Assembly: GCA_039096225.1 (NCBI GenBank)
Contig: JBBPEB010000020.1
Span: 434,001 to 498,000, forward strand
Source: Blastocystis sp. Blastoise
Lineage: Eukaryota > Protista > Bigyra: Opalinata
DNA length: 64,000 nucleotides
Direction: 5' to 3'
Below, in pieces: positions 7,426 through 64,000 of the stretch. Position numbers and translations under genes: made by a program. Each line of letters opens with the position of its first letter. The stretch's first letter is position 1. Below the pieces are notes generated by a model. The model was given only the letters and a program-made list of their open reading frames with translations, ran no database searches and had not been told where the DNA came from.

Positions 7426-8138
7426 TTATATATCTGTTATACGAATATATAATTCATATTCATACTTTTTCCCATTCATTATCATTGAATTCGTGGCTAC
7501 AGGTAATTCAACGACAGTGGGAGACCTATGTATTATAGGTGTTGTTCTGGTAATTGATGGAGGAAGTGAAAGAATAGGAAATTGTCTAAATGAATTAGAA
7601 GATGCAGGAGTTCTAGGAGAGTTATAAGCGAAAATAGGGGAATTAGGAGTTGAACATGGAGAATAATGAGGAGAATAGCAACGTTGAGGAGAGTACTCGC
7701 ATTCAGATTCATTACTAACTTTTCGTTTATTAGTTATTTTGTTATTTTCAACTAAAATTAAAATAAAATATATAAAAATAATTAAATATAATATATTTAT
7801 ATATATAGTAAGAAATATTTAATTTATATAAATAATAATATTATAATATAACAATATATACTCTCTTCAGAAGGTTTTGAATCTTGTTCTTTGATTTCTT
7901 TCGTTTGATCTTTCAGATCATATCCTTTTTCACTTCTGTTAGAGTAGATAGTAGCTTCACTATCCTCACTATCCTTATTGATGCTGTTTTCATCACATTT
8001 AGGGATCTCCAGGAGTTTTCTTAACTGATCTGATCCTAGATCAGTTGAAAAAATAGTAGAATAAAATTAAAAAAATATGCATATGTATATACCTTTACAA
8101 GTAGACATACGAGCAGGGCGGCCACGACCAATAGGCAT
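7426..8138 (-). CDS. Three-exon small protein with N-terminal AT-hook-like GRGRP, a DSEATIYS motif and a Ser/Pro-rich C-terminus
   Basis: Manual splicing gives an open frame: MPIGRGRPARMSTCKGSDQLRKLL...DSEDSEATIYSNRS...YSPQRCYSPHYSP...YELYIRITDI*. Confidence 0.65.
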
Positions 8139-16613: not shown

Positions 16614-16629
16614 TCCATTTGAATTAAAC

Positions 16630-17299
16630 CTAATGCGGAATATTAGGATCTATATTGTATGACTTTTTGACAATACCATATTTAGATATGGCATTCTTTA
16701 GTTTATTATATTTTTGCTTTAATTTTCCTTTTACTGCTAGTCCTATTTGTGCTACTCGAAAAACATCTGTTGCGGCATCTTGTGGCATTTTTTCTGAGCC
16801 ATTTGAATTTTTTAAATATCTAAGATAATTTTGCTCTCCAGCTTTATATAAGCTTCTAAAACCACGTGGTATATTACCATTTTTTTTCCAATTCTCTAGT
16901 CTTTCCTTATATGATGGATAAACACCCCCCATAAGCTTCCATGCCCTAATATCATCCTTAATTTTTTGGCCTGTAAATTTACCCATAACGCCAATATTTT
17001 TTATTTTTTGTTTAGCATAGTCTCTCCAATCACTTTGTACATTTCCTTTTTTATTCTCATTTTGTTCTGGAACATTATCATGCATATTTTGTTCTGGATC
17101 ATAAATATATCTTTCTGGATTATATGCATATGGACAATTATGCTTTTCATTTCCATAATTTAATTTTACATTATTTTTTTCCAAGGAAGATATTTATTTA
17201 ATGTACTTAGAATTTTCCATGCACCTCCTCTTTTAATTTTTATATTACCACCTTTTATATCACTAAAATCAAAATTATCTATAATAGATTCATTATTGA
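16630..17299 (-). pseudogene. 5'-truncated, frameshifted viral core-protein-like gene
   Basis: FSDIKGGNIKIKRGGAWKILSTLNKYLP joins, through a frameshift in an A7 run (~17175-17181), to the 184-aa ORF. Resembles QSGDGILRVKRGGGFWSGLMDYAP of 56542-58188. Cut off by the Helitron 3' end at 17300. Confidence 0.55.
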
Positions 17300-28700: not shown

Positions 28701-28733
28701 ACTAAAAATTGTGTATTTAATGGAGTATCATAA
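22731..28733 (+). pseudogene. Helitron A RepHel (HUH Rep + PIF1 helicase) with two in-frame stops
   Basis: Intron 23838-23910 joins the Asn-rich N-terminus. EYQKRGMPHAH, KYIFKY, GPGGTGKT, DEAPM, GDFRQ, FAMTINKSQGQT, HGQLYVALSR. TGA at 25602 and TAA at 26493 are in the same frame. Confidence 0.92.
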
Positions 28734-28984: not shown

Positions 28985-29213
28985 GTTGTTCAGTTGTGTT
29001 TTAGTATTATGTATTAAATAAGGGTTAACAAAACAACCTCGTTTATTATAAACATTTTTCGAACAAATAAAAAGAAAAAAAATAAAGAGTAAAAATTTAT
29101 TATGAACATTTTTAGAACAAATAGAAAGTGAAAAAGTAAAAAATTACATAGAAACAATAATTAACAAACATAAAACAATATATAACAAAAGAAGAGAAGA
29201 GAAAAGAAAACAT

Positions 29214-32200
29214 TTAATTGTTTAGAGTAGACCTGAAGACCACGTTCTTAGTAAATATTTCATTACTACTACTAATTATCTTACCTTGAGAGACACTATC
29301 AACTACCTTAATAAAAAGAGAATTGAAAGATCGAGCACGACTGAAAGCAACATAGAGTTGACCATGAGAGAAGACAGGACGATCTAAATAAACACCAACT
29401 CTTTCAAATGTTTGTCCTTGAGATTTGTTGATAGTCATTGCGAACGCTAAACGAATAGGAAATTGTCTTCTGGATATAATAATAGGAAGATCTTCAGGAT
29501 TTGAATTACAGATGATTCTTGGAATAATAACAGTACGTTCATCAATAGTAAGAGAAGGAGGAGGATTTAAAATAGTAGCAGTAATATTATTTGATCCTAA
29601 TCGAGTAACTATAAGTCTAGTACCATTACATAATCCTTTAGAAGGATTAAGATTTCTTAAAAGCATAATGATACAACCTATTTTCAAATTTAATATATGA
29701 GGAGGCATTCCAGAAGGTGTTTGAGAATTGATAAACTCGATAGGATAATTTGATTCTGGATCATCTGTTTCAGAATCAAGAATAGAATCAGAAGAGATAT
29801 AAGGAGTAGTAGTTCCAGAAAGAAGATTATCTACAATGAAATCATTTAAAGTACCAACACAATCATTAGTAGAAGCTAATATAACAGAAGAAGCTAATCG
29901 TTTGATATCAGAATCAAGAGAAGTATTGATTCTATGTCCAAATACAGTAACACATAAATCATCATTTACAATACATTGAGGAGGAATAGGAATATAATCT
30001 ATATCTAAATGATGACTAATAGTATAATTATTAGAAAGAACACCATCTCCTACTTGTAATAACCATTGTCTAAAATCATCTGCTCCTTCTAAAGCTCTCA
30101 TATTTCTCGATAAATGAATGACATTATTTTTGATAGAATTCCATAACGAATAAAACTTTATAGAAGAACTAACAATCTGAGCTTGAGTTCCTTTTCTTAT
30201 AACTGGTAAACATTGTCTGAAATCTCCTCCTAATACTACCGTTTTACCACCAAAAGGAATATCTAATTCTGTATTCATTATATCACATAATAATCTATGT
30301 ACTACCATAAAACAATCACCTTTCATCATAGGAGCTTCATCCCATATTATTAAATCAGCTATTCTTATTTCTTCTACTTTTCTTCTATCTCTAGCTAAAT
30401 CTATATTTGAAGTAGAATCAGGATCAACATTCAAAGGAATACCAAATTGTTTATGAGCTGTTTTACCACCTGGTAATAAAGTAGAAGCAATTCCTGTTGA
30501 AGCTACAGGTAATACATTCTTATTATGTCCACGTAAATAACTTAATAAACTATTATATAAGAAAGTCTTTCCACTTCCACCTGGACCATCTATAAAGAAA
30601 CATAACTTATCTTCTATTCTACTACTTTCTATTGAATGAATTACTCTATCAAATGCATTTCTTTGTTCTTCATTTAATAATTCTATTACTCTATTAGCTT
30701 CTTGTAATTCTAATGTAGGATTATAATTATAATCATTATAATGATGTTGTTCTTCTACTTGAGGTAATCCTAAATCATTATAATTCACTCCTATACTTAT
30801 CATCATCTCTTTTATATCTTGTAAAGTACGTATTTCATAATCTTGAAGAACACTATTATTATCATCTTCTATAACACTTGATGAATCTAAATCTTGAGCT
30901 AAAGGAGTATTTATATAATCTATTTCATTATTGTGCATTGAATGTTTATAATCCTCACTAAGAAATGATTTAAATCGAATCCAAAACTCTTTCACATTTG
31001 TTAATAATGATTCTGAAATATAAGTAATAAATAATTGTCTCAATTGACATGGAGTAGCAAAAACAATAGCTTCTGAAAATGAATCAAATACTTCTCTCTC
31101 ATTATTCAATAATCCTCTTGCTATAGCTGCTTCACTAAAGGTTCTATAAGGTTCATTACTATTCAATCCTTTTACTATCTTCAAAGAATCAAAGCTATCA
31201 GCTCCTTTCGTATTCAATAATAATAATCTCAAAGCATATCGTTCTTTATCTTTTGGATTCACATAATACATTCTTCCTAAAGCTTTTATATCTCTCTGAC
31301 GTCTATTCCAAGTATTTGTATTTGATTTCCATACATAATATTTTGGTATTTCATGATAAGCATAAATAGGATATTTCTCATCTAATATTTTCAATAATTC
31401 TTCTGATATATTATCATCATCTACTTCATAACTATTTATTCTATTTATCTCTTCTAAACGAACTTGAATCAATTCTCTTTCTTCTTCTACATTATTCATA
31501 TTACGAATACCATGCTTCTTCTCTATATAATAATAAGTATATATCTTTCTTTGATTCTGAACTTCTTTCTCTAAATCAAAGTATTTTGTTAATTTAGTAC
31601 CTTTCTCTAAACTATTTCTTAATGCTTCTTCTTCGTGTCCTTCTCGAAATAATATATATGGATCATCAGGTAAATGAATAGGTAATCTATTAATAGAAAC
31701 AGAATTATAAGTAATTTCAAAACAATTCAAACGATAAGAAGCTTCAGGAGGAGAAACATATCGACAATCTAAATAAGCTTGAGTTTCATCTACTATTCCA
31801 TTATCATTCACTCTTCGTAATTGAGCTATCACAGAATCATTTCCTTTTAATGCATACTTATATATATATTTAGTACTTTGAATATTACAACAGACTTCTA
31901 CATTAATATGAGCTTGATATTTCAATAATAAATAAGGATTATAAGGAACTACCCAACGATTATCAATAGTATAAGTATTATGACTACGAATAAGAGTAAT
32001 AGTTCTATCAGGAATATTTCTTCTTTGATATAAAGGATAAGAATTTAAATGACAATTAGTTTGCTCTATATATTCTTTTGGAAATCTCTTACTACATTTA
32101 CCTGTTGATCTATCAATACAAACACAATTCGTATCATAATCAGGACCACATGGACCATGAATCATATGTTTCTTAACTAATTCATAAAGAAGAGGAGTTG

Positions 32201-34948
32201 ATTCTTTATCAGGAATCTCTGCACTTATTATACTATCTACTTCATCTTCTGTTCTATATTTAGAATTCGTATCTAAAATAATTAATATATGAGAATGTGG
32301 TAAACCTCTCTTTTGGAATTCTACTGAATATAATAAAGCTTCTACCATACCAAATATATTCTTATCCTTTATATCAGAAAGCAATTGTTTCAACTTTAAA
32401 TGAAACACTCTTGAAACTAAATCTGGAAATTCATTAACAGTATAACCTTCTGGAATATTATTCTTTATTTCTAACCAATCTGGATTGCAAGTAAATGTAA
32501 TAAATAAATCAGGTTTACCATATTCTCGAACTACACTCATAGCATCCATATATTTCTGTTGTAAATTTCTTGGACTACCAACAAAAGAAGAAGGTAATAT
32601 AATAGCTTTACCTATTCTATCTATATTTCTATCATTCTCATTTATTTGATCTCCTCTCTCTTCTAACATATTATTTATATTTTGATAAGTAGATGCTCTT
32701 AATTTATTTTGATTATTTCGTATATAATTCAATCTATATTGTTCAACACGGATATAATTATCAGTAATATATTGTAAAGTTAATTTCTTATATTTTAATA
32801 AATAATTATCATAAGGTGGATCTTTCATTTGAAGCATATAATTATAATATTCTAACATCGTAATAGTTATTTGATTAGAACGATTCAATGATAATAAATC
32901 TGGATACCAACCTTGTCTTCCAGTTGGAAACATAACTGGATAAACCATACAATCTATATATGAATTTGTATTCTTCATTACTATATATTGACCTGAAGTA
33001 TAACGATTCTGTTCATTATTACTATTAGTAGCTACTATTTCCATACCACTTCTAGGAAAACAACAATAACTTCTTTCTGGCATTACTCCTCCTTCTCTAT
33101 ATTGATATATTACTGCTACTTCATCTACTTGAGGAGTATTATATCTTCTTATATCAGGTACTTCTCTTCTTTGTTTCTTAAATTCTATTAATAAATTAAT
33201 ATTACTTCTATTCATTTGACTATTCTCTTCTATTACTTCATCTACTCTTTCTCGAAGTGAATTATATATTTGAGCTAATGGATGATATTCTCTTATTGTA
33301 CTATCTAATATTTGTAAAATATTTGGTTTTAAATCACAAAAATATCGATTCATACTTCTCATATGAGTAGCTTCATCTCCATCTATCATATAATATTGAT
33401 TGAATACAGGATGTCTTGTAGGATCATTCACATCAAAATCTAAAGCACTCTTAAAAGTATGATATATATTACCTCCACATTTAAATAGTAAAGGTCCAGA
33501 AGAATTTCTTAAATCATCATCAGAAGTATTATTTCCAGCTAAAGAAGCTAAAGCAACAGAATTATTATATCGAATAATATTATTAATAAATTCTCTTGAA
33601 TCTGGATTATCTCTTTGTAATAAAGAACGAATAGTATTAGGAAGATCAGGAAGCTCAGGAAGAACTACTTTACCACTACCACAGCAAGTATAAAACTTAT
33701 CATTCATTCCTTTCTCTAATTCAAAATGTTTAGCATGACAATATTCACAATGAACATTAAAATCACCTAAATAATTAGCTTTATAAGTATTCAATGCTTC
33801 ATTTAATACGAAATCACCATGAGAATCTATATAAAATAATATAAAATAAATATTAAATATATATAAATACTTCTTTGAATAGAAGCAATACAATTATGTA
33901 ATCCAGGATATAATAATCTTTGTTGATTATCTATAGAAGTAATTTATTATTTAATTATTTATAAAGGATTATAAAATATAAATAGCATACAAATATCTAA
34001 AGCTCTTCTTCTTCCTCTATTAATAATAGGATGAATAATTATATCTTCTTCAACTATAAATTAAATTTAAAAAATATATTTAAATAATAATAAAAAACAT
34101 ACTATTATCTGTTATAGGTCTTCTAATAGTTCTTATAGCTTGTGTTTCATCATTATTTTGAGTATTACTATTGATAATAGGAAAAGGATCAATATAATCA
34201 GAATCAGAATCATTATCAGAAAAACTACTACTACTACTACTACTACTATCACTTGAACTACTACTACTACTACTATTAGGTATTGTTGTTATAATTTCTG
34301 ATTCATTATCATTATTTAAATTAATATGAGGAATATTTGTTATCAAACTTAAAGGAGGAAGAATAGGACTTAAATCAGGAATAGTTAAATAACTATTCAT
34401 GATAGAATTAATGGATCTATTATTTCTATGTATTATTGTTTCATTATTATTAGTATTAGTGTTATTTCTTGAATGATTCGTATTATCATTAATGATTGCA
34501 GAATTATTATTGTTAGATATATTTACATCAGTTGGAATAGTACTAACAACAGGTAAAGAGTGTGAAGAAGTATTAATGGAATCGTTATTATTATTAGAAA
34601 CTGAAATATTATTTTCTGTAGGTTGTATAATAGTAGTTGATATAGGAATAGATTGATTATTATTATTAATTTGACTTTGAACAATAGATATGTTATTAAT
34701 TGATTGATTAACTGGATTCATTTGATTGAATAGGTTTGAACCATTATTTAATATAGAATTATTATTATTTATTTGTGAATAACTATTATCTATATCAATA
34801 TCAATATTGTTATTTGAATTATTGTTTTGAATGTTTTGTAAAGAAATATTATTTTGTATATTAAAAGTCGAAAACAAAGCTAAAGGTTTAGTGTTAAAAC
34901 CAAATGATTTAGATAAATCATTATTATTTATTTTATCCTTATTGGAAC
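29214..34948 (-). CDS. Helitron B RepHel transposase/helicase, intact, with spliced low-complexity N-terminus
   Basis: 1559-aa ORF with CEYCHA..CC zinc motif, EFQKRGLPHSH, KYIYKY, GPGGSGKT and PIF1 motifs; upstream exons reach 34948. Confidence 0.95.
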
Positions 34949-39727: not shown

Positions 39728-42705
39728 ATGGAGTAGTAGTATCTAGATGCAATTCATTATCGAATGAAATAGAAAATGAAGCATATAGGTTATGGGTTAA
39801 ACTAGAAGTCTCAATTGAGAAGTTTCGTGATATCCTCTTTTCAGTTTATTCAATGTTAAAATTAACGAACGTAGCAGCTACACAACTATTAAGCCTAAGT
39901 CTTGATACGCAAACATATATTAGGAATATAAGATCTAATCAAGAGTTCTATCCAGAGTCGTTGAGACTCTATATCTGCCCTAAATGCTTTAATATAACAG
40001 CTATGACATCATCAAGAAACAATTTAAACAGCGACAGAACTTTGTGCCCAATTGACGTTGATATACCAGGAAGTAGTATATTAATGATAATATAAATTAT
40101 ATTTATTATATATGATGTTCTATATATATTTATAGAAATTTATCACACATCTATCCTGCCTTTGATTCCAAGAATTTCTAGCCTTTTGAATGATCCAGAT
40201 ATGATGAGTGACTTATGCTACTATACAAAAGAAGAAATTATATCATTGCTCTATCTTCATAATAGTGAGAACTATTATATTCCTATATCAGATGTGAATT
40301 ATTCAGCAAGTCCTATCAATTTACCAACTAACATACCTAAGTATTTTTATGGATCTTCTTTCTACAAATATACACGTCCTTTAATAGAGAAGGCTGATAT
40401 ATTTTTATATTTTTCAGTAACTTCAGATGGCATATCAGTGATTAGTAAACCACAAAAAGAAGACAATAAATCAACTTACCCTATTACTGTTAAACTTCTA
40501 AATTATTTTCAAAAAAGAAAGGTTGATAATCGCAGATTATGGGTTTATAGCTGTCCAGTTAGTAGTATGGTTAACCCTGTTATTGAAGTACTCTGTGAGG
40601 AATTAGCACATTTAGAACAAGGTATGAATATACAAATCAATAAGACCAATGAATATAAACGTGTTGTTGGTATTCTTTTAGATGTATATGGAGACTTTCC
40701 AGCCATGTCAAAAATGGCTAATACACCAAGTTCTTCTAGCACATGTCCATGTAGATTCTGTAACCTCTCTGTTTCTAGATCAAGAACAAATATCTTTCAT
40801 TCTGGAATAAAGTGTTGCTACGAAGAATCAGTATGTTTTAGAGATGAGAATCAAAACATAACAACATTTCATATACCAATCTATCGTCCCAATGAACCAT
40901 TAAATTCGAATAACATGATCATAGATTATCTCGACGAATCAATAATTAATGCAAATGTATGTGTCTCAATATCTCCTCCATTAGAGATGCCGACTTCATC
41001 AATATATAAAGATTCTTTACTATCTTCAACGCCTTCTTATCGTTCATCAGAAGTATCTACTCAATTATTAAACAATACGAATGAGGTTAATGTTGATATA
41101 CCAATTAAAGGTTTTAAGAAGTTATCTTATTTTGACACTCTAGAATCTTGCTCTTTAGATCCAATGCACTTGTTGAATAATGTTGCAACATCATTGATGG
41201 AACTCCTTTGGAACTATCCAAAAACAAAAGTATATTCTAATTTAGACTATATATTGACAAAAAATGATTCTTTAAAGTTCATCTCAAAGATATCATTATC
41301 AGAAGATAATAAGACAATAATTAAAACTAGGATGAAGAATATGAATATGTTATACAATGCTGATATGTATCAAATTAGTACAATACTAGATGATCTTAAT
41401 TTCTATTCTTGTTCATCTCATAGCCGAATTCTTTTTTTTTCAAGAGTACTCCCTCTTCTTATGTCAGATTTTGTTTATAAAGATTCCCCATTAGTATTAG
41501 TTATAGAACTATTTGGATCAATTATATGTGATTGTATGAATATCAATCCAATAATAGAGAAAAACCAATTATTATGTTTCGAACAACGTTGTATTCAATT
41601 TGTATCAATACTGGAGTCTATTCTTCCCTCTGTTCTCATAAGTGTTCAAATGCATAGTATCAAGCATCTTGCTTTATGTATAAAACATACAGGCTCTCTA
41701 TATTACACATCTACATGGGAATCAGAAAGGTCATATAGCACAATAAAAAGGATTACAAAAGGAAAATATAACTATAATGAATCTGTTTTGATAAAAGTTC
41801 AAGATCAGGAGTCAATTCAAGTACATTCAAAACTTAATTGTATGAACAAAAATATAGATAATATAAAAGATAAAAGATATACTTCCTTAGAATGTAAAGA
41901 AGTATTCATAGATGATTGTCCACTTATATATTCTTTTAAAGGTATAGAAAAACGATCCTTTTCTGAAATTTTTGATAGAGATATTCTATCTATAATTCTA
42001 TTACTTTCTTCTACATCATCATGTTCTATTCGAACAAAATTATTTTCAGAAATATTCGATGATAGTATTACTCCATATATAAGAGAAGAAAAAATTAAGA
42101 ATGAAATTGATATTCAAAAGAAGATAATGGAAAATTTCAAGTCATTAAAAAGATATTGTTATAATTCAATAACTGTTAATGGAGGAGTTTCTTTTCGAAT
42201 AAATAAATCTGATGCCGAAAAAGGAACAAAGGATAATTCTTATATAATGCAAAGTATATCAATTCAGTTAGATTCTGGAGAATATGTATGGAGACCTGTA
42301 TTATATAAAGTATTTTTATTTTTACAATTTGAAGACAGAATGATACTGAAAGTACATAGATATCCAACAGCTAATTATAGCCAATCAAGACTGTATGGAT
42401 ATTTTATAAATTATTCGAATCATTTGGATATTTCTTTGTGTTCAGACTATGAATATCTTCTAATCGAAAACATAAAACCATACAATATAATTTGTGTAGA
42501 TTTTGGAATTTCTAAAGAAATAGTAGATTCAAATAATAATAATTATGTATATTATTCTAACTAATTTATATATTATTATATTTTTACATAGTCGATACAT
42601 GATGCACAGAATGAAATTAGAGAGAATGAAACTAATACTGACGATTCTTATTTGATATCTGTATTCACTACATATAAAGCTGCTTTAGATCAAGAGGATG
42701 ATTAA
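39728..42705 (+). CDS. CACTA/CMC DDE transposase (spliced; further 5' exons likely)
   Basis: ICPKC zinc motif, VTSDG, YGDFPA, CPCRFC, DPMH, QMHSIKHL..CIKHTGSL...WESER, typical of EnSpm TnpD-like transposases. Confidence 0.88.
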
Positions 42706-53248: not shown

Positions 53249-53374
53249 TATTAATTCTTCCGTTCTTCGAACTGCAGAAGGGGGTATGCAAACCCCGCAT
53301 AGAGTCTGCGCGACGCGCGCAGCCATAAGCGGGGAAGACATCCCCCCTTTTTGTTCTCGACGGAAGAATTAATA
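53249..53374. other. 126-nt GC-rich imperfect hairpin at the left end of the viral element
   Basis: Perfect 15-bp arms TATTAATTCTTCCGT / ACGGAAGAATTAATA; inner GGGGG/CCCCC, CCCCGC/GCGGGG and CTGCGCG/CGCGCAG stems; 3-nt loop. Confidence 0.85.
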
Positions 53375-53486
53375 ACATTTCTGAAGTAAAATAACCATGG
53401 GAGTGTAGGGTAGTGTGTGTGTGTATTTATTTTTTCCCATGTTTATTTATTTTTAATTTATTTGTGTTCTGATTCCAACGTGAAAC

Positions 53487-53850
53487 GTAAAGTGATCAAG
53501 GAGAAACTCATAGTAATCATAAAAGAAATAAAATACACAGTCCAACCCTCCCCTTTACAGGGAATATTCATGGAAAATGACTCCATCGTTGGTAAAGTGA
53601 GTAAAATAATCACGGGAATACAGAAAGAAATACGAAAAGAAGCACAGAATGTGCTAAATAAACACACACCCCGACCCTCCCTTTATATAGAGAAAAGATG
53701 AAATGGATGGTTCTATCTAAAAAGAAATAATAAAAATAATCACGGGAATATATAAAAATAAAAATGTATGTATAGTGATCAATAAATAATATAAAAAGTC
53801 ATGATAATCATAAAAAATTTATATAAAAAAGAGTAAAGTGATCAAGGTAT
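53487..53850 (+). repeat. Short dispersed direct repeats (iteron-like)
   Basis: TAAAGTGATCAAGG x2; ACCCTCCCTTTA x2 and AAATAATCACGGGAATA x2 with 130-bp spacing. Confidence 0.6.
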
Positions 53851-54110: not shown

Positions 54111-54160
54111 TTTCTAGAATATTCTAGAACATTCTCGAAACTTCTAGAACATTCTAGAAC
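54111..54160. promoter_or_regulatory. Heat-shock element array (10 alternating nGAAn pentamers) upstream of the tyrosine recombinase
   Basis: tTTCt aGAAt aTTCt aGAAc aTTCt cGAAa cTTCt aGAAc aTTCt aGAAc, ~90 nt before ATG 54248. Confidence 0.8.
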
Positions 54161-54247
54161 ATGAGAATCTTAGATATTTTATTTTGATTTTCTTATGTAT
54201 TATTCTTTTGAAAATAGAAGTTTTAGAGATTCTACTTGAGAAAATCA

Positions 54248-55183
54248 ATGAAAAATACAAATTATGACAAGTATCTTTTGGTTATACAGAATTCAAATTA
54301 TTCTGATATTTGGAAAAAACGTTTAACCAATTATTTCAATTTATATATTTTCCCATTACCATTTAAAAAGTTCTCAGAATTCTTAAAGAATCCTTATTCA
54401 TTCATGGATTATATGGTAAATGAACGTAAAATCAAAATTAGTCCAATGAAATCGTTATGTGAATTGATATTATTTATTATACGTAATGTTTCTTCATTAA
54501 ATAAAGAAGGTATTTTGAATAAATGGTGTGAATTTTATGTGATTATCAATTCAATGTATGAAAAATATCTGGATAATAAGAAACGTACTTTAATTCAAGA
54601 TCTTATTAAAGATGGTATTACGACTCCATATTTACATGAATATCACGATAAATTAGAAAATTATAATCCATTACGATTAATATTAGATTTTTACTCCTAT
54701 CTTCCTCCTGCTCGTGCTGATTATGCTCAATTATTCATTCTATCACCAGAAGATACTATTGATCCAGCTATTCATAAGAATTATATTGTTTATGATAAAG
54801 AGAAACATACTGGTTCTATTCTATTAAATGATTATAAAACTGCTGGTAAATACTCTACAATTCAATTAGATGCACCAAAAGAATTGATTGAAGATCTAGA
54901 ATTACTCTTAAAAAGAAATCCAAATCGTAAATTTATATTTGAATCTTCTGTAAGAACTGGATTTACTACTAAAGCATTTGATTGGTTTGTGAATAAGCAT
55001 TTAAAACAAATCCATCCAAAATTAACCATTAATGCATTAAGAAAATTATATGCTACAACTACAACCAATACATTCCAAGATATAGAAAATTCTGCTTCTG
55101 CTTTATGTCATAATGATTATACACATATTAATTCTTATGTATCTTTAGAAAATAATAATTTATTTAAAAAATTAATTGAATAA
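54248..55183 (+). CDS. Tyrosine recombinase/integrase (virophage/PLV/NCLDV type)
   Basis: LPPARADY (R), LNDYKTAGKY (K), TINALRKLYA (xxR), LCH (H), INSY (Y nucleophile). Confidence 0.88.
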   Translation: MKNTNYDKYLLVIQNSNYSDIWKKRLTNYFNLYIFPLPFKKFSEFLKNPYSFMDYMVNERKIKISPMKSLCELILFIIRNVSSLNKEGILNKWCEFYVIINSMYEKYLDNKKRTLIQDLIKDGITTPYLHEYHDKLENYNPLRLILDFYSYLPPARADYAQLFILSPEDTIDPAIHKNYIVYDKEKHTGSILLNDYKTAGKYSTIQLDAPKELIEDLELLLKRNPNRKFIFESSVRTGFTTKAFDWFVNKHLKQIHPKLTINALRKLYATTTTNTFQDIENSASALCHNDYTHINSYVSLENNNLFKKLIE

Positions 55184-55256
55184 TTTTATGTTTTCATGTT
55201 TGTTTTGCTTTAATTTTGAATATAACTAAACAACTAGTAATAAAAGGATATAAAAA

Positions 55257-55631
55257 TTAATTAAAAGGTAAGAAAGATAGATTATTATTATTATTTTGAT
55301 ATTGATTTTGTTGTTGATTACTTTTCATAGTTGGCATAAACATATTATTGGGTTGAATAAGATTCTTATCATCTTGATATTGATTCTCATTCTTCATATA
55401 TTGTTTATCCAATAACATTTCAAGACGTTGATGAATCACAGGATCATCTATATAAAGTAACATATTTCTACAATAACTCAATTGCAAATCACTAAGATTT
55501 TTGTTGTTATTATTATTTAAAAATTGTTCTAATAGATTCGCTATTTCATTCTTTTTAGATTTAATTCCTTCTTCTTTTAGATTCTTCATCACACGACAAA
55601 AATAAGAATAACTAAGATATTTCTTGTTCAT
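55257..55631 (-). CDS. Hypothetical viral protein (124 aa)
   Basis: Intronless ATG ORF in the viral cluster with an HSE upstream. Confidence 0.6.
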   Translation of the reverse strand: MNKKYLSYSYFCRVMKNLKEEGIKSKKNEIANLLEQFLNNNNNKNLSDLQLSYCRNMLLYIDDPVIHQRLEMLLDKQYMKNENQYQDDKNLIQPNNMFMPTMKSNQQQNQYQNNNNNLSFLPFN

Positions 55632-55725
55632 TATTTAAATTAACCAATGATTAAACAAAACAAATTAATTATATAAAACACTAATATAATAAATTAAAGA
55701 TTCTACAAATAGAGCCAGTTCAAAA

Positions 55726-55761
55726 TGAATGTTCTAGAATGTTCTAGAACGTTTCTTGAAC
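55726..55761. promoter_or_regulatory. HSE (5 in-phase pentamers plus 2 shifted)
   Basis: tGAAt gTTCt aGAAt gTTCt aGAAc, ~95 nt upstream of ATG 55631 (-). Confidence 0.7.
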
Positions 55762-55889
55762 ATATAAAAGTAAAGTAAAATATATATAATAATAAGAACA
55801 ATTTCAATAACTGACAGTATTTCATTTACATTCTCTAAAGTTTCTGCACTACGATCTAAGTAGTAATTGCCAAATCGTTTCTTTGTCAT
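55734..55889 (-). CDS. Possible small membrane protein (51 aa from the ATG)
   Basis: MTKKRFG...ILSVIEIVLIIIYILLYFYMFKKRSRTF: one hydrophobic segment followed by a basic tail; its 3' end overlaps an HSE. Confidence 0.4.
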   Translation of the reverse strand: MTKKRFGNYYLDRSAETLENVNEILSVIEIVLIIIYILLYFYMFKKRSRTF

Positions 55890-55952
55890 AATAGTATTAA
55901 ATATTAAACAAAACAAATTAATTATACAAAATATTAATATAATAAATTAAAG

Positions 55953-55972
55953 ATTCTAGAATATTCTAGAAG
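55953..55972. promoter_or_regulatory. HSE (4 pentamers)
   Basis: aTTCt aGAAt aTTCt aGAAg. Confidence 0.6.
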
Positions 55973-55975
55973 GTT

Positions 55976-56509
55976 TTAACAAGGCATAAGATTTCCATTA
56001 GAAAGTAAATAAAGTAAAGAATAATAAAAGCAACCATTTGCATTACTTGTAGTTTTTTGGTGTTGAATAGGATTATATTGAATATTATGATTTTGAATAA
56101 ATGATTTTGAAAAAGTAGGTTCATTTCCTAATGATGAATAGTGTTCTATGTTTTTATTACCATTATAAATAACAGCTTCAAAATGACCATTATAAGGATC
56201 ACTAGGACTTTCATGAAAGATCATATTAAATTTAGTTTGATCTTGATCTATATTTTGTTCAAAATCATCATAACTATTATAATAATTATAAGATTGAGAA
56301 TTCGTTTTATTTAATTGTTTCATAACATTTTCAGCACGATCACAAGCAACAGAAGAGGTAGGTTTATTTAAATAAGCATAATTATATAATTGAGATATTA
56401 AAGAATTTGGTATATTACAATATTGAGATAGAGTTTGTTTGAAATTATCAGGGGATCTAGGAGTAACATGACGAGTTTTATCAGATATAATAGGATTATC
56501 GCAATTCAT
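55976..56509 (-). CDS. Adenain-like (CE clan) viral maturation cysteine protease
   Basis: NGHFEAVIYNGNKNIEHYSSLG ... IQYNPIQHQKTTSNANGCFYYSLLYL matches the GHW...YFDSxG...QxQ...CG pattern of Polinton/virophage/adenovirus proteases. Confidence 0.75.
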   Translation of the reverse strand: MNCDNPIISDKTRHVTPRSPDNFKQTLSQYCNIPNSLISQLYNYAYLNKPTSSVACDRAENVMKQLNKTNSQSYNYYNSYDDFEQNIDQDQTKFNMIFHESPSDPYNGHFEAVIYNGNKNIEHYSSLGNEPTFSKSFIQNHNIQYNPIQHQKTTSNANGCFYYSLLYLLSNGNLMPC

Positions 56510-56541
56510 TGAATTTTGAATAAGTTTTTCATCTTTACTCT

Positions 56542-58188
56542 TTACCAGATCCCCTCCCCTGAGTTTTTTGATAACATATACTTCTTTTTTTTCCAGAACA
56601 ATTCGTCACCTGTATTTAATGTTTCATTATTATCTATTTTCTGTTTTATAATTTGTAATTGTTTTAAATCAGCCTCTTGTATTTTACGTTTTTTTCGTGC
56701 CACTCCTGCAGGTATTATAAAATCTGTATAAAATGATACTAATGGATTCAAATCACCACCTCTTTTCTTTTTAGCTTCTTTTCCTCTTCTCATTCGTTCT
56801 AAGAATTCTGCTTTACTTAATTTAACTCGACCACCATAACCTCTACGTTTAGCTCTTCTTGCAGCTATTCGTTTATCCCTTTCATCTTCTTTCCATTTTC
56901 TATCGACTTTCTCTTTATCATTTTGAGGGAAACCATAAATCTTATAAGGATAACTTTGTTCATCACGAGGCATAGGTTTATAAGGTTGAGGAGGTTGCGA
57001 ATGTTGAGGAGGTCGAGGTTGAGTAGGTCGATCAACTTGTTGTTGTGGAGGTGGTGGAGGTTGAACAACGGGTTGTGGATGTAGTCTATCATCTTCATCA
57101 AGAGCATCTTGCATTTCATCAGCTACATCATAATATCCTTCAAACATTTTATTTATTGTATTTCCTGAACCTATTTGCTTTTTCATTTCATTTAATGCTT
57201 GTTGACGTTTTAATTTTTCCATTTCAAATTCCATATCATTTAATTCACTTGATTGTTGTGCCAAATGTGTATCATAATAAGCTTTTCTACCTTTAGCAAA
57301 AGAATCCATACCTTTATCAACTACACCTAATAGAGCTGGTGCATAATCCATTAATCCACTCCAGAATCCACCACCTCTTTTTACTCTTAATATACCATCA
57401 CCACTTTGAGCTGAATCTAAATCTATATATTTTGGTATAATAGAGGGTCTTAACATTCTTCTTAATTTTGGATTCTTAATCATTTTCTTATTTTTAATTG
57501 CATTCATAATTGCTGAAGCAACTGATATAGGAATCTTTCCACCACGTTTAATTTTATGTTCATAGAATCTTTTGAATTCATCATCAAGATCATGATGACC
57601 ATCACCAACATATTGAGCTAAAATAGCTAATGCATCACGAGCTTTTCTATTAGCTTTTTTATCTACAATAGCATCTCTTATATCTAATACATTTCGTTGA
57701 TACATATCTTTTACTTTATTTTTAATTGCATCACCAATACCAGAACCTTGATTATTCTCAAATTTATTGATTTCTGATTTATTTGGAATAATTCCTCTAC
57801 CAGATTTACGTCTTGGTTTACATGGATTTAATACTTTATATTGACGATCTTCACCATCTATTTTATCTTCTTCTGGACCAGCTGCTTTCATTACACCTTT
57901 ACCTGCTGCTCTAGCACGAATTAAAGCACCATTTCCTTGTGGAACAGCATCTTTACCAAATGTTTTAGAACGATCTACATAATCATCTTCTTTACCATCA
58001 TGTATTTCTTTACTTTCTAAAGTAGACACAGGCATAGATGAATTTGGACCTATTTCATGAAATATTGGATTATATTGATCCATTTTATGTAATGGTTGTG
58101 TATTATATCGCCTATATTCTTTTCCAGTTGAAATTAAATTCATACCAAAAGTACCAGGACTTGGCATTCCTAATATACAACTTTGCAT
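56542..58188 (-). CDS. Basic viral core/membrane-penetration polyprotein with multiple GG/GxG putative cleavage sites
   Basis: KRGG x3, GSG x2, GNG, GKG, GRG, GDG, YGG, GEG; KRGG|GFWSGLMDY amphipathic segment; adjacent to the protease gene. Confidence 0.65.
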   Translation of the reverse strand: MQSCILGMPSPGTFGMNLISTGKEYRRYNTQPLHKMDQYNPIFHEIGPNSSMPVSTLESKEIHDGKEDDYVDRSKTFGKDAVPQGNGALIRARAAGKGVMKAAGPEEDKIDGEDRQYKVLNPCKPRRKSGRGIIPNKSEINKFENNQGSGIGDAIKNKVKDMYQRNVLDIRDAIVDKKANRKARDALAILAQYVGDGHHDLDDEFKRFYEHKIKRGGKIPISVASAIMNAIKNKKMIKNPKLRRMLRPSIIPKYIDLDSAQSGDGILRVKRGGGFWSGLMDYAPALLGVVDKGMDSFAKGRKAYYDTHLAQQSSELNDMEFEMEKLKRQQALNEMKKQIGSGNTINKMFEGYYDVADEMQDALDEDDRLHPQPVVQPPPPPQQQVDRPTQPRPPQHSQPPQPYKPMPRDEQSYPYKIYGFPQNDKEKVDRKWKEDERDKRIAARRAKRRGYGGRVKLSKAEFLERMRRGKEAKKKRGGDLNPLVSFYTDFIIPAGVARKKRKIQEADLKQLQIIKQKIDNNETLNTGDELFWKKKKYMLSKNSGEGIW

Positions 58189-58263
58189 TTTTTTATTTCA
58201 ATTATAAAATTATTTATAAACAAAACAAATATATTAATAAAAAATAAATTTAACATTAAAAAT

Positions 58264-58857
58264 TTATAAATTAGTTAAATCAATAATAGTATCATTACTA
58301 TTAGTATTCTTCGTAGATTTATCGATGACTTTAATAGAACGAGCATATAAACCAATATAATACTTGTTATTATAACGATGAATACCATGTATTGTAAATA
58401 ATACTTTACATAACGTATTTGGTGGAATATACTTTTCACGTATTTCTTCGTAAGTTAACTTAGGATCTTTACCGATATTAATCTTCTTATCTCTTTTATC
58501 AGTAATATCAATAGTAACATTCTTCGATGCATTAATAGGTACTTTAATTGTAATCTTATATTTACCATTATCCATACGTACAAAATTAACAATATCACCA
58601 TCAGGACATAATTCACATAATTTACGATAAAGTTCTTTATAAGCAGTTAAGAATACTTGATTATCATCTTCAATTGTTAATAAAGTCCATTTATCACGTG
58701 TAACAATATAACCAAATAAACATGGTGTAGCATCAGTAGAAATACATACACGATGATTATTATTTAAAAGAACAGCATTTTCTTTGGTGTCATCCCATTG
58801 TAAATTAAAGTTAGAAGTATCAAGAATAGTAGGTTTTTTAAATTCAGTTGTAGACAT
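58264..58857 (-). CDS. OB-fold single-stranded DNA-binding protein (NCLDV/T7 gp2.5-like)
   Basis: TDATPCLFG...LTI...FLTAYKEL...ITIKVP...IPPNTLCKVLFTIHGIH....YIGLYARSIKV pattern of viral SSBs. Confidence 0.7.
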   Translation of the reverse strand: MSTTEFKKPTILDTSNFNLQWDDTKENAVLLNNNHRVCISTDATPCLFGYIVTRDKWTLLTIEDDNQVFLTAYKELYRKLCELCPDGDIVNFVRMDNGKYKITIKVPINASKNVTIDITDKRDKKINIGKDPKLTYEEIREKYIPPNTLCKVLFTIHGIHRYNNKYYIGLYARSIKVIDKSTKNTNSNDTIIDLTNL

Positions 58858-58933
58858 TTTTAGTTAAGTATTTAGTAAAAATATAAGTATTTTAATACTA
58901 ATATTTTACGATATTCTTTTCAAATGAATCAAT

Positions 58934-58983
58934 TTTCGAGAAGGTTCTAGAAGGTTCTAGAAGGTTCGAGAAGGTTCTAGAAA
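58934..58983. promoter_or_regulatory. HSE array (10 pentamers) upstream of the SSB
   Basis: tTTCg aGAAg gTTCt aGAAg gTTCt aGAAg gTTCg aGAAg gTTCt aGAAa, ~77 nt before ATG 58857 (-). Confidence 0.8.
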
Positions 58984-59087
58984 AAAAGAACACTTGAATA
59001 ATCTAATGGAAACATTTTAACGGAATCGAACCATGATACTGTGGTTACATATTTCTTTAATAGATCCATTAGACCATTCAAGAATTC
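58981..59087 (-). ncRNA. Candidate Pol III type-2 small RNA (VA/vault-like stem-loop, ~105 nt)
   Basis: A box TGGTCTAATGG (59076-59066), B box GGTTCGATTCC (59032-59022), 18-bp terminal stem with two G-U pairs, T7 terminator (58987-58981). Confidence 0.65.
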
Positions 59088-59177
59088 TATTTGAAACTAT
59101 TCTATTCTCCATTTAAACTTTGTGTAATTAATTTTAAAATAATAAACAAAACAAAATAATTAATTAAATAAAAATAA

Positions 59178-59705
59178 TTAATGATCAAATATTTCAGACA
59201 TAGAAGGAATAGAATATTCGGATAATAATGAAACAATTTCTTTAGAATCATCATGAATCTGTTTCAAATCTTGTTTCTGACTTTCAATCTTTGTTTTTAA
59301 ATGATCAACAGTACAATAAATACCATTTAATATATTATCAGCTGTTTCAATAGTTTGAAATAAAGATTCGAATTGACTGGATATATTTGTTAACTCCTCA
59401 TTTGTAAATAATAATGCTTGCTTATCAGGATTTGTATTTACTTGATCTTGAAATTGTATTGGTTGATTGTTAACGGAATGATATCTATCTGGATTTTTAG
59501 ATACGTAAACATCATTGATTGGATGAATTTCTTGAGGTGGATCTTCAAACATGATTTCGTCACGCGAATTAAAACAGAAATCATTATCATTGGGTAAAGC
59601 CATAGGATTTGCAGAAACACTATTTTCAAATGGATTCAACAAGGGGGATATCATGGCTTGACCGAAAGGGGATAAACTGGCAGAAAGACTATCAGGAATT
59701 TCCAT
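59178..59705 (-). CDS. Hypothetical viral protein (175 aa; acidic N-terminus, coiled-coil-like C-terminus)
   Basis: Intronless ATG ORF followed by a TTGTTTTGTTT motif. Confidence 0.7.
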   Translation of the reverse strand: MEIPDSLSASLSPFGQAMISPLLNPFENSVSANPMALPNDNDFCFNSRDEIMFEDPPQEIHPINDVYVSKNPDRYHSVNNQPIQFQDQVNTNPDKQALLFTNEELTNISSQFESLFQTIETADNILNGIYCTVDHLKTKIESQKQDLKQIHDDSKEIVSLLSEYSIPSMSEIFDH

Positions 59706-59819
59706 GATTATTTAAACCTTCAAAAGTATTTTTATACAATATATTAAATATACTATTTTTAGTGTACAGTTCTTCATTTCAGTTGCTAACAAAAGCCTAT
59801 TGCTTCCAGCTGGAAAATA

Positions 59820-59993
59820 AGCCAATAAAATAACTTATTTCGTATGACACATCGTCGTCATCGTCTAATTGTGTTTTACTAATTTTTTTATCCAATCAGA
59901 TTACAGATGCCAACTATACTCGTCATTGAAACACAAATAAAAAATGCTAAGTCGACAAAATTAGCCAATCAAATGAACCTTCTAGAACATTCC
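59820..59993. promoter_or_regulatory. Divergent promoter with three CCAAT boxes and a 4-pentamer HSE
   Basis: CCAAT at ~59822, ~59892 and ~59965; tGAAc cTTCt aGAAc aTTCc at 59974-59993. Confidence 0.6.
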
Positions 59994-60103
59994 ATAGAGA
60001 TTCTACACTGTCTCCTAGAATATTTAATATTCCATTTAAATGTATTATTTATTTCATTTTGATAAATACAAATTTTCTCTCTGTAACGATATTCGCGATT
60101 ATA

Positions 60104-60727
60104 ATGCAATTTAATCTTTCTGCTGATTCCCGTAAATGTCTTCAAACTGTTCGTATGGAACTTCTTAAGAATTCTAAGAAGGCTGTTGAAGTTCATAAGA
60201 ATGTTCTTCGTGATATTGATTTACATCAGTCTCAATTGAATAGAGAAAAGAATCTATTGGGTATTGCAAAATCTAAAGAACGTCTTGCTTCTTTCGAAGT
60301 CGAAAACTATAGATCAGCTTTAAAACGTATAAACGCGGTTATTAAAGGTCTTGAAGATTATGAAGAATTCGCTGCTGATATTTATACTCAACAACTTAAT
60401 GAAGAACAAGATATTCAAGATATTATCAATACTGAAGATCTTTTAGAAAGTGATAGAACTACTATTTTATGTTCTGAAGATTCTAAAGAACATTCGAATT
60501 CTCAAGATGATGATTTTGATATTATGAAATTCCATATGGAAGATGGATTTCTTTATGATGAAAAAGGTAAAGTTTATACTTATGAAGTTGTTCATGCTAA
60601 GAGTATTAACAAGATTAAAAGAGATCCTTCAAAACAAATGTATTTCTGGGATGGTATTTTATATGATAAGAATGGATGGCCTCATTCATGTACATATATT
60701 AATAGTCAAGAACCAATTGAAATTTAA
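60104..60727 (+). CDS. Hypothetical viral coiled-coil protein (from MQFNLS)
   Basis: Intronless ORF, heptad-like N-half, duplicated DG(F/I)LYD(E/K)xG motif at the C-terminus. Confidence 0.7.
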   Translation: MQFNLSADSRKCLQTVRMELLKNSKKAVEVHKNVLRDIDLHQSQLNREKNLLGIAKSKERLASFEVENYRSALKRINAVIKGLEDYEEFAADIYTQQLNEEQDIQDIINTEDLLESDRTTILCSEDSKEHSNSQDDDFDIMKFHMEDGFLYDEKGKVYTYEVVHAKSINKIKRDPSKQMYFWDGILYDKNGWPHSCTYINSQEPIEI

Positions 60728-60836
60728 TTATTTTTCTTGTTTATTTTTCTATTTTTACTTATAAACTTGTAAAAAATCATTGAAAATTGTTTTGTTTATT
60801 GTATATACATTTAAAACACTAAAGTATAAAAAGGAT

Positions 60837-60968
60837 GTTCTAGAAGGTTCTAGAAGGTTCTAGAATGTTCTCGAAGGTTCTAGAACATTTAAAAATATAA
60901 AGTAATATTTACTATTATAGAATGTTCTAGAAGGTTCTAGAATGTTCTTGAATGTTCTAGAAGCTTCT
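60837..60968. promoter_or_regulatory. Two HSE arrays of 10 pentamers each (60837-60886 and 60919-60968) upstream of the primase-helicase
   Basis: Perfect GAA/TTC alternation at 5-bp phase; ends 85 nt before ATG 61054. Confidence 0.8.
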
Positions 60969-61053: not shown

Positions 61054-64000
61054 ATGGAAAATTCACAAATTCATTTTGTTTATACTTTTGGTTCCTTTAA
61101 TCATGATAATTCAAAAGATAATCATAGTGAAATTATTATACCAAATCCATTACCATTTTATAAAAGTCTATTTACTAATTATCAAAATCAAAAAGAATTA
61201 TTACATTATATTGATTGTACTCCTTGTAATACATCAACTAATTATAGAAGATTATGGTTTGATTTAGATTATCACCAAATATCTGATGATTTTTCTTTTC
61301 TAACAGATTCTTTTATTCATGAATTTATAGAAGAAATGTGTAATCATTGTATTCATTATTATAATCAAGAATTTATTTCGCTTGTGTATACAAAGAAAGA
61401 AGTGAATAAGAAGACAGTTCATAATGAAATACATTATTCATGGGGAATTCATATATATACAAATTGGTTTGTAAATGGTGATTATTTATTTTTCTTATAT
61501 AATAGTATGATTCTGAATACCAAATTGGTTGATTTATGTAAAATGAATAATTTAGATATAAAAGAATTCATTGATTATAATGTTATTGGTAAACCCAGAA
61601 AGAATAATGGTTGTATGTTTCTTGGTTGTAGTAAAGATAATTCTCCATCTACTTATAAATTATATGAAGAATATACCAATAAAACATGGAAGAAAATAGA
61701 TGATGAAATCGATGAACATTATTATTTCAAAACATTATTGAATTATAAGAATGAAGATGATATTATAAGTGATATTATTAATCCTATTATTTTTTATAAA
61801 TTAAAACAATATTCACGTTATAAACGTTATTATGCAAGATTAAATAATTGTTCACGTACTATATTATGTTCTATACAAGATATTAAAGATATTCCTATGT
61901 TGATTTCTACAGATACTATATTGGATACTACAGCATCTAAAGAAGCTTTATTAGAACGATATTTATTATTGATTGGTTCTATTGAAGATATGAATTATTT
62001 TGAATCTCATAATACTTGGTATAAATTATGTTGTGCAGCAAAACAGATTTGTAATACAACAAGAGGATTAGAATTATTTAAAAATTATTCATTACGTTAT
62101 GGTCATGATCGAAGTGATGATGTAATTGAATCTACATGGAATCATATACAAGTTGATCCTACTCATTTATCGAATAATTATATTTTGAAGATATTAATGG
62201 ATAATAAATTATTTAATAAAGATGATGATAATGATTTCATATTTATGTCTATTTTAGAATGTATTCAATCCTTTAATCTTGTAGATTCACAAACATTAGT
62301 TATGTTATTTCAATTATTAGAATTTAATGAAATTGTTTCTATTATATTAGATAAAGATAATTTTATCTTATATACATTTGATGAATATAATATCTTAAGA
62401 CGTTGTAAGAATAATTATGATATTAATTTCTTTGAAACCAAAATAACTACATTTATGAAATCGATTGTCGAGAAATTCAAATTATCAAGATTATATTCCA
62501 AAGAGAATGAACAACATCAAAAAATAGTTGATAAAATAATGTCTGCTTCTGTTACTAATGAATATCATTATAAAGAATGGTTGAATCGTTATTTGAAGAC
62601 TTATGGTAAATCTTATAAAGAATATTTAGATACTTATATGGTTCATAAAGAACGTGTTATCTATACACAACTTGGTTATTTATATCCAAAAGAATCTACA
62701 GAAGAAGATCCTAGACAATATTATATCCAACCATATCATAAAGAAGATATGGTGTTTGAAGATTTATTAATTGATACTGAATTTAATGTAAGTTGGAATA
62801 TTAATAATGAACAGAAAGATATTATCCAATTATTTGAACAACATATTGCAAGATATTGTGAATTCGATAAGAAATATGAAAGTATTATGTTACGTATCTT
62901 AACCACTGCTTTCTATGTCAATACTCAGAAAACAGTTTCTTATATATTATATGGTAGTACAGGTAGTAATGGTAAAACAATAACAACTGATTTAATTTCT
63001 CGTATTGTAGGTAGTAATCAATGTATTATAGTAAATCCAGATAATTTAGAAGAAACATCTATAGCTCCTAAGATTGTAGATATGTCTAATAAAACAATGT
63101 ATTATATGAATGAATTAATAGAAGAAGATGTTACTGGTAGAAAGAAAACATTTAATCCATTCTCTTCTAAAGTCTTTAAAGAAATAGCAGAAAAGAAAGA
63201 AGGTGCTAGTGCTCGTAAATTATTCAGTAATATATTTACAAAAGTTCATTTCACGGGTACTTTATTTATGACAAGTAATATCCAACCTACTGCTGTGAAT
63301 GCTGGTCCTATTGAAAGAAGAGTCTGTTTCTTACCATCATGTTGTCGTTATTTCCCTCCTGGTAATGCTAATTTATATGAAGATTATGTAGATCATAATT
63401 TACCTAAACGTAAACAGACAGTAGAAAAGAGATTGAAACCTAATCATTATGAAATGGATTATACTCTATCCGATAAATTCTATCAGAATCGTTCTATTAT
63501 CTTTAGTTATCTAGTAAGTAATTATTTCTATTCTAGTATGCAATTAGATATGCATGAATTAGATAATGAATATCATATAAGTGAATGTAAGAAACGATTC
63601 TTTGATCGTAGTACAGAAGGATATGATTTGAAATCTTTTGTTGATAACCATATTACTATAGATCCTTATTATTTGAATGTAGTTACTATTGAAGATATTT
63701 TTAATAGTTATAAGAAAGTGAATAATAATAATCAATTTACGATTAAGAAAGATTTAGATAAATTTACAAATGCTTTATTTGGTTGTTTAAGTAGTAAAGA
63801 TACATTCAATTCTATAGATATTGTGAATATTCATAGAAAACATACTTCAAATTTCTATAAGGGAGGGAATGCTATTGGTATTTGTGGTTTAATGATTGAT
63901 AATACTTATAATGAATGTGTAGATACAGATTTATTCTGTTTATCCAATTGTTTATCTAAGAAAGAAGAAATTGTTTATAGTGAAGATCAATATCATAATA
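61054..64000 (+). CDS. D5-like AEP primase - PriCT - SF3 helicase (runs off the right edge; absent from the ORF track)
   Basis: Manual translation: LWFDLD, WGIHIY, IDYNV (AEP motifs I-III); HNTWYKL...GLELF...TW (PriCT-2); YGSTGSNGKT (Walker A); YMNE (Walker B); LFMTSN (motif C); IERR. Confidence 0.9.
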   Translation, partial: MENSQIHFVYTFGSFNHDNSKDNHSEIIIPNPLPFYKSLFTNYQNQKELLHYIDCTPCNTSTNYRRLWFDLDYHQISDDFSFLTDSFIHEFIEEMCNHCIHYYNQEFISLVYTKKEVNKKTVHNEIHYSWGIHIYTNWFVNGDYLFFLYNSMILNTKLVDLCKMNNLDIKEFIDYNVIGKPRKNNGCMFLGCSKDNSPSTYKLYEEYTNKTWKKIDDEIDEHYYFKTLLNYKNEDDIISDIINPIIFYKLKQYSRYKRYYARLNNCSRTILCSIQDIKDIPMLISTDTILDTTASKEALLERYLLLIGSIEDMNYFESHNTWYKLCCAAKQICNTTRGLELFKNYSLRYGHDRSDDVIESTWNHIQVDPTHLSNNYILKILMDNKLFNKDDDNDFIFMSILECIQSFNLVDSQTLVMLFQLLEFNEIVSIILDKDNFILYTFDEYNILRRCKNNYDINFFETKITTFMKSIVEKFKLSRLYSKENEQHQKIVDKIMSASVTNEYHYKEWLNRYLKTYGKSYKEYLDTYMVHKERVIYTQLGYLYPKESTEEDPRQYYIQPYHKEDMVFEDLLIDTEFNVSWNINNEQKDIIQLFEQHIARYCEFDKKYESIMLRILTTAFYVNTQKTVSYILYGSTGSNGKTITTDLISRIVGSNQCIIVNPDNLEETSIAPKIVDMSNKTMYYMNELIEEDVTGRKKTFNPFSSKVFKEIAEKKEGASARKLFSNIFTKVHFTGTLFMTSNIQPTAVNAGPIERRVCFLPSCCRYFPPGNANLYEDYVDHNLPKRKQTVEKRLKPNHYEMDYTLSDKFYQNRSIIFSYLVSNYFYSSMQLDMHELDNEYHISECKKRFFDRSTEGYDLKSFVDNHITIDPYYLNVVTIEDIFNSYKKVNNNNQFTIKKDLDKFTNALFGCLSSKDTFNSIDIVNIHRKHTSNFYKGGNAIGICGLMIDNTYNECVDTDLFCLSNCLSKKEEIVYSEDQYHN

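Follow-up and report, generated by a model that had tools for sequence, protein, structure and literature searches.

In a 64,000-nt stretch of the genome of the gut protist Blastocystis sp. Blastoise (assembly GCA_039096225.1, contig JBBPEB010000020.1, positions 434,001 to 498,000; hereafter the window, from whose first base all positions are counted), a virus-like DNA element was identified in which six genes are preceded by arrays of the heat shock element (HSE) type. These genes encode a tyrosine recombinase (YR), a likely single-stranded-DNA-binding protein (SSB), an archaeo-eukaryotic primase (AEP)-superfamily 3 (SF3) helicase and three small open reading frames (ORFs). Based on the form and position of the arrays, heat shock factor (HSF) of the host probably binds them and co-activates all six genes.

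Seven HSE-type arrays precede six genes

Seven perfectly alternating nGAAn/nTTCn arrays were found within 7 kb, four of them with 10 units. Each array exceeds the minimum of three contiguous inverted nGAAn units by which an HSE is defined. Distances were measured from the end of the array to the ATG, that is, to the start codon rather than the transcription start. The initial annotation, made from the sequence alone, had placed four 10-unit arrays in the promoters of the recombinase, SSB and primase-helicase genes, with the nearest one ending about 75-90 nt before each ATG, and their coordinates were recovered exactly. Array 1 (54111..54160) ends 87 nt 5' of the recombinase ATG, array 2 (58934..58983) ends 76 nt 5' of the SSB ATG, and arrays 3 (60837..60886) and 4 (60919..60968) end 167 and 85 nt, respectively, 5' of the primase-helicase ATG. 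The smaller arrays reported before three further viral ORFs were also present, with five units at 55726..55750 (94 nt 5' of ORF124), four units at 55953..55972 (63 nt 5' of a 51-aa ORF) and four units at 59974..59993, between the divergent ORF175 and ORF207 and 110 nt 5' of the latter. For each of the six ATGs, the nearest array ends 63-110 nt upstream. As had also been claimed, no array stands near the start of the polyprotein or the protease gene (the nearest being 745 and 2424 nt away), and none of at least four units occurs in the other 53 kb of the window, where just two 3-unit runs (at 4923 and 52878) were seen. In this host DNA, mobile elements and repeats were recognised but no chaperone gene was identified, and it therefore does not provide a positive control.

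The arrays were compared with a null model of 900 Markov simulations (orders 1, 3 and 5) trained on the element itself. No simulated array was longer than 5 units, and the expected number of 10-unit arrays per 64 kb was ~4e-11. Given intergenic placement, the probability that all seven arrays lie 55-175 nt before a start codon was ~2e-4, for a range that was picked post hoc. Where Tandem Repeats Finder set the array limits (four arrays), changes relative to the unit consensus were found at 7/55 spacer positions and 0/90 core positions (Fisher p 9e-4), and with the two primase arrays included by hand the counts became 14/95 for the spacer and 0/150 for the GAA/TTC core. When the two primase arrays were treated as one unsplit Tandem Repeats Finder array, no spacer/core contrast emerged, owing to the 32-nt spacer between them. 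The invariant GAA/TTC together with the variable spacers favours selection on the core over drift, in line with the earlier preference for selection over slippage. The head-to-head junctions read TTCTAGAA in 19 of 24 cases; the TA was lost in five, with GAA/TTC unchanged throughout.

Likely capacity of the host to read the arrays

HSEs are described as inverted nGAAn repeats, of which HSF1 prefers long contiguous arrays (PMC12366260), and the core of the long terminal repeat (LTR) of the Arabidopsis retrotransposon ONSEN is given as TTCTAGAA, as in most junctions of the element (PMC13602373). The presence of an HSF in the host, which the initial annotation had left to be checked, was borne out for the genus: the HSF DNA-binding domain IPR000232 is recorded in 8/8 Blastocystis proteomes, with 2-3 in each, and the HSBP1 domain, present in Cafeteria and Proteromonas, is recorded in none of the eight (PMC12129017, supplement file 10). 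No literature on Blastocystis HSF was found.

Further signs pointed to transcription by host RNA polymerase II (Pol II). CCAAT boxes occur in the element, three of them upstream of ORF175. A TGTTT(T)GTT motif was found 13-71 nt after 6/8 stop codons (at 55197, 55653, 55906, 58218, 59144 and 60788), always in sense, and did not occur once in the 8.4 kb of coding DNA of the element. It is similar to the downstream gene element of Blastocystis, described as not enriched in tortoise isolates (PMC12129017). A motif of this type was also present at 29163, after a Helitron ORF. A 59-nt unit in which a gene's 3' motif is linked with the promoter of the following gene occurs twice (55650-55708 and 55903-55961, 93% alike).

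A multi-copy Polinton-like element

The recombinase (311 aa, 54248..55183, + strand) retains R156, K197, R265 and H288 in all members of a 30-sequence family alignment, and its profile gave weak matches to the integrase structure 3nkh (E 0.007) and to Phage_integrase (E 0.08). The primase-helicase (61054..64000, + strand) runs off the end of the window and has 1000 aa in sister copies. It matched DNA primase (E 2e-9), a fold like that of the C962R PrimPol of African swine fever virus (E 1.5e-14) and D5-like viral proteins; a PDB sequence search with it returned no match. The 197-aa ORF at 58264..58857 (- strand) lies nearest to the Nucleocytoviricota clusters DUF5871/DUF2738 (score 0.95), which we take to be SSBs, and is labelled as a likely SSB on that basis. 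The gene labels given initially to these three ORFs were thus upheld by cluster, profile and fold matches.

The recombinase is 99% identical to NCBI proteins of Blastocystis sp. Blastoise, and its cluster comprises 10 sequences at 19 contig places. The primase-helicase cluster has 19 members, with the 12 full-length sequences among the 15 listed at least 99% alike, and the cluster of ORF175 has 16, with consecutive locus tags and the same gene order. Near-identical copies in a common gene order indicate that the element is multi-copy, young and for the most part intact. The same host contains a second family at 38% identity, and families from metagenomes show 42-45% identity, with some of them located on contigs of 16.2 and 23.7 kb. 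Over the stretch compared, which ended at 60700, contigs of sequencing run X1, presumed to be RNA, matched portions of most ORFs of the element, and two sister runs yielded none. As such contigs reveal no strand, ends or level, they carry no information on expression.

Polinton-like viruses (PLVs) are described as carrying a YR and a primase-SF3 helicase gene set and as ranging from 14 to 40 kb (10.64898/2026.06.19.733378; PMC10120064). Both an integrase (YR) and a replication gene (primase-helicase) were found here, together with multi-copy integration, and the two related contigs lie within this size range. The recombinase also belongs to the same family as the YR of a PLV from the viral contigs (L009). 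The protein-primed DNA polymerase B (pPolB) and rve integrase of strict Mavericks/Polintons were not in the window, which has the YR and primase-helicase instead, and the viral PolB count was 0 in three low-GC Blastocystis isolates. Judged by its gene content, this DNA represents the left portion of a Polinton-like element with ~19 near-identical copies in a low-GC Blastocystis. No double jelly-roll major capsid or minor capsid gene was found in the window, which cuts the element at the right; as capsid and packaging ATPase genes were both missing from this cut copy, its viral nature is inferred. The element apparently represents an undescribed virus family of Blastocystis with relatives in metagenome assemblies.

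The remaining small ORFs were ORF124 (55257..55631, - strand) and ORF207 (60104..60727, + strand), both orphans with no match, a 51-aa ORF (55734..55889, - strand) with a hydrophobic segment that is likely membrane-embedded, the helix being judged by eye, and ORF175 (59178..59705, - strand), with an acidic N-terminus, a coiled-coil-like C-terminus and the nearest array 268 nt away. For ORF175, matches to ubiquitin proved to be summed-repeat artefacts with 0 passing stretches, and an HSBP1-like feedback inhibitor, an idea suggested by the coiled coil, was rejected as no match was obtained. Neither an RNA polymerase nor a recognisable DNA-binding regulator was found among the window ORFs.

Close to where the element likely ends on the left, a GC-rich, rod-shaped hairpin of 126 nt (53249..53374) is closed by a perfect 15-bp inverted repeat (z -7.7 as DNA, -8.5 as RNA). 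It had no match in Rfam and is a candidate for an element end, an origin or a small RNA. Short direct repeats follow at 53385-53850.

Polyprotein, protease and a candidate frameshift

The unit that lacks arrays includes a basic, proline-rich ORF of 548 aa with repeated (K)RGG motifs (56542..58188, - strand). This polyprotein is likely a virion core precursor, its function being presumed from Gly-Gly cleavage motifs. The adjoining frame (55976..56605, - strand), open from 56605 and with its first ATG at 56509, likely encodes a cysteine protease of the CE clan (adenain/Ulp1-like). CE-clan proteases topped the matches of its structure model, although with a predicted local distance difference test (pLDDT) score of 48 and Z of 5-6.6 these are weak and serve as a lead only. 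Some groups of PLVs have a maturation cysteine protease.

A candidate -1 slippery site, A_AAA_AAC (56563..56569, - strand), lies in frame just before the polyprotein stop, and the -1 frame continues via a KLRGG motif into the protease. A stem is predicted downstream of it (56445-56560, z -2.6). The polyprotein C-terminus was identical in 15/15 database copies, with two haplotypes diverging just upstream, and no 3' motif was present between the two ORFs. Taken together, the identical C-termini, the stem and the missing 3' motif make it likely that a programmed -1 frameshift joins polyprotein to protease. Similar hexon-protease fusions have been predicted in adintoviruses (PMC11071296). A 72-nt joint within the protease was seen in one sequencing contig of depth 2.

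HSE-type arrays in other genomes

When IMG/VR was searched with an 8-unit pattern, only 4 stretches were found; with 6-unit scans included there were 93 loci with 41 distinct arrays, and no locus had more than two arrays. Most of the scanned viral arrays lay inside ORFs, and three of the four such long ORFs tested matched phage replication initiators. Alternating GAA/TTC arrays with a 10-bp period lie within the replication-initiator genes of phage loci (L006, L020, L025 and relatives) and are likely iterons.

A scan for the TTCTAGAA form returned 12 loci, namely six viruses of the CRESS type (with circular single-stranded DNA that encodes a Rep; three closely related), four giant-virus contigs (two alike) and two likely phages. 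In five of the CRESS viruses (L021, L191, L204, L212 and L217), TTCTAGAA arrays of 5-6 units end 97-133 nt before the Rep or capsid gene and lie 100-490 nt from the origin nonamer; in the sixth (L210), the array is at the Rep stop. The PLV L009, which has an A32 ATPase and a capsid-like ORF, carries a 6-unit array (8000-8029) in a divergent promoter, 40 nt before an HMG-box gene. Single arrays 40-133 nt before a start codon in this unrelated PLV and in five CRESS viruses were counted in favour of binding by HSF. Literature on HSEs of CRESS viruses was not among the matches listed.

In metagenomes, at least 115 loci with long arrays were obtained, 80 of them with flanks, and 56 of 76 neighbouring ORFs were scanned. 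These 56 included 4 mariner transposases, 2 copia, 2 RING proteins and several bacterial-type enzymes. Mariner transposases and a copia gag were seen beside HSE-type arrays of 7-9 units in L050, L092, L103, L141 and L135.

Proposed mechanism and alternatives

With 10 units, a long array would have room for about three HSF trimers and could form a switch of great strength. Release of HSF under stress, whether from heat, proteotoxic stress or infection, would then co-induce the genes for excision and DNA replication by way of host Pol II. The polyprotein-protease unit, having no array, would be expressed later by another signal, and the -1 frameshift would yield protease in small amounts; this structural unit looks separately controlled. 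For stress-inducibility of the element the case appears about evenly poised, and a full switch from excision to particle is doubtful. It is likewise possible, rather than probable, that the element is a temperate DNA virus with host HSF as the latent-to-active switch for ~19 inherited proviruses, with no helper giant virus and with a frameshift of the retroviral type dosing the maturation protease.

The initial proposal that host HSF co-induces the early genes on heat or proteotoxic stress therefore stands in part. The fit to the HSE, the promoter position, the selection on the core, the HSF of the genus and the intact multi-copy state speak for it, whereas heat as the trigger is one of several options. 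In lambdoid prophages, the SOS response to host stress triggers excision and replication by repressor cleavage. The analogy drawn with such prophages holds in its logic but not in its mechanism, as direct activation by a host factor is proposed here, with no repressor to destroy.

Several observations weigh against an HSF-driven virus. No A32-like packaging ATPase was found among the window ORFs, to which the missing capsid genes are to be added, and A32 scored 0 in 8/8 annotated Blastocystis proteomes, though the annotation names 3 of the 19 primase-helicase members. Searches with the recombinase or primase alignments returned no related loci in viral contigs, metagenomes or prokaryote genomes. 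The right half of the element, outside the window, could encode an array binder of its own. The arrays within phage replication initiators show that the motif is not HSF-specific, so that the pattern alone is no proof of HSF. In the giant-virus contigs L182 and L215, the arrays lie between convergent genes, and at 21 loci with the recombinase family of L009 and the element, mostly giant-virus contigs, no array of at least four units was present in 306 kb. No chaperone family was found among the 56 ORFs beside long metagenome arrays, a count limited by introns and short contigs, suggesting that such long perfect arrays frequently belong to repeats or transposons; some of the metagenome matches were bacterial.

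Binding by HSF is common to co-induction by stress and to the alternative that survives best, in which HSF binds but acts as a constitutive strong promoter or an infection sensor and not as a heat switch. Yeast Hsf1 drives basal transcription (PMC6340206), HSF1 is activated by viral infection (PMC12366260), and the lack of HSBP1 in the eight proteomes can be read in the same way. As HSF may be basal or infection-activated, this wiring could serve several ends, among them that of a 'heat-induced prophage'. Steady production of recombinase and replicase from ~19 copies would, however, be costly to the host, and the transposable-element precedents are heat-induced; this alternative is considered rather unlikely.

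A smaller chance is given to the arrays being sites for an element-encoded protein, such as origin iterons of the primase-helicase, arm sites of the recombinase or targets of an autoregulator in the right half, and this explanation is regarded as unlikely. It can draw on the similar arrays in phage initiator genes, on three unexplained orphan ORFs and on the half of the element outside the window. The dispersal of the seven arrays, each at a set distance from a start codon, is nevertheless unlike a single origin, the phage junctions are mostly CC/GG/CG rather than TA, the hairpin at 53249-53374 is a better candidate for an origin or end, and the orphans have no match to a DNA-binding family.

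It is very improbable that the arrays are virophage-like promoters for a helper giant virus. Each TTCTAGAA contains TCTA, the late motif of mavirus and Cafeteria roenbergensis virus (CroV); in Cafeteria, a related flagellate, this mavirus promoter motif has flanks that are AT-rich (PMC8547959), and giant viruses can wake PLVs (10.1101/2025.10.09.676808). Against this, it is the TA that is lost at 5/24 junctions and never GAA/TTC, the arrays precede early-type genes and not the structural unit, and the host-type 3' motifs indicate nuclear transcription. Functionless slippage or conversion of a palindromic 10-mer is just as improbable, for although long perfect arrays of such a unit are plain repeats in many genomes and the four long arrays are mutually 86-91% alike, the changes are confined to spacer positions, every array is in promoter position and none occurs in the 53 kb of repeat-rich host DNA.

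Other contents of the window

Two convergent Helitron Rep-helicase genes were present to the left of the element, one at 22808-28733 (+ strand) split over several ORFs and one at 29214-33707 (- strand) intact, with Pfam matches to Helitron_like_N and PIF1. The region 12990-17085 (- strand) contains a low-complexity ORF of 1207 aa and a basic ORF of 151 aa, with no Pfam match, and has 488/489-nt repeats on either side (2173-3061 and 18152-19379). Transposase-like remnants were recognised by eye at 1-954, 9992-11437 and 40201-42564.

Relation to known systems and significance

The element shares with described YR PLVs (10.64898/2026.06.19.733378; PMC10120064) a YR in place of rve, a primase-SF3 helicase in place of pPolB and many copies in a protist genome. 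It differs in that capsid and ATPase were not seen in the window, and in that PLV reactivation is known via giant viruses and not via host HSF. The main texts of these two papers do not name Blastocystis. The Blastocystis hominis MELD virus (PMC8502044) is likewise a mid-size DNA virus from Blastocystis datasets, but is described with PolB and an rve-type integrase, as against the YR and primase-helicase found here.

Among mobile elements, ONSEN/COPIA78 of Arabidopsis (PMC13602373) also hijacks host HSF through an HSE of the TTCTAGAA type, but is described as a retrotransposon whose single LTR promoter holds five HSE-like cores, compared with seven arrays and six genes in the Blastocystis DNA element. 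The heat-induced HSE Helitrons of Caenorhabditis (PMC6927752) have tandem HSE arrays before a DNA replication (Rep-helicase) gene; unlike the Blastocystis element, they are described with one gene per element, no virion-type genes and arrays that are large repeats. The latent viruses EBV, KSHV, HCMV and HIV (Epstein-Barr virus, Kaposi's sarcoma-associated herpesvirus, human cytomegalovirus and human immunodeficiency virus) have host HSF at key promoters (PMC12366260), but these are large animal viruses with single or few HSEs, whereas the element is integrated and inherited and has all its early genes so wired. Hijacking of HSF is thus already known from ONSEN, Helitrons and herpesviruses, and it is the wiring of a whole recombination-replication module that was not found in print. 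No paper was found that joins PLVs or Polintons with HSEs, and none on a YR virus of Blastocystis or on this element in a search that covered the preprints apart from their supplements.

Waking of endogenous virophages and PLVs, as described, requires a giant virus (10.1101/2025.10.09.676808; PMC8547959). For the many endogenous PLVs of protists, the present element suggests a trigger of another kind, namely a stress pathway of the host. Since Blastocystis can be cultured, the proposed heat switch lends itself to a simple test. For a protist of an ectothermic host, swings in body temperature or exit from the gut may be the natural cues. If the proposal is true, the single arrays in the PLV L009 and the CRESS viruses would mean that small nuclear DNA viruses of protists commonly have HSF as their trigger.

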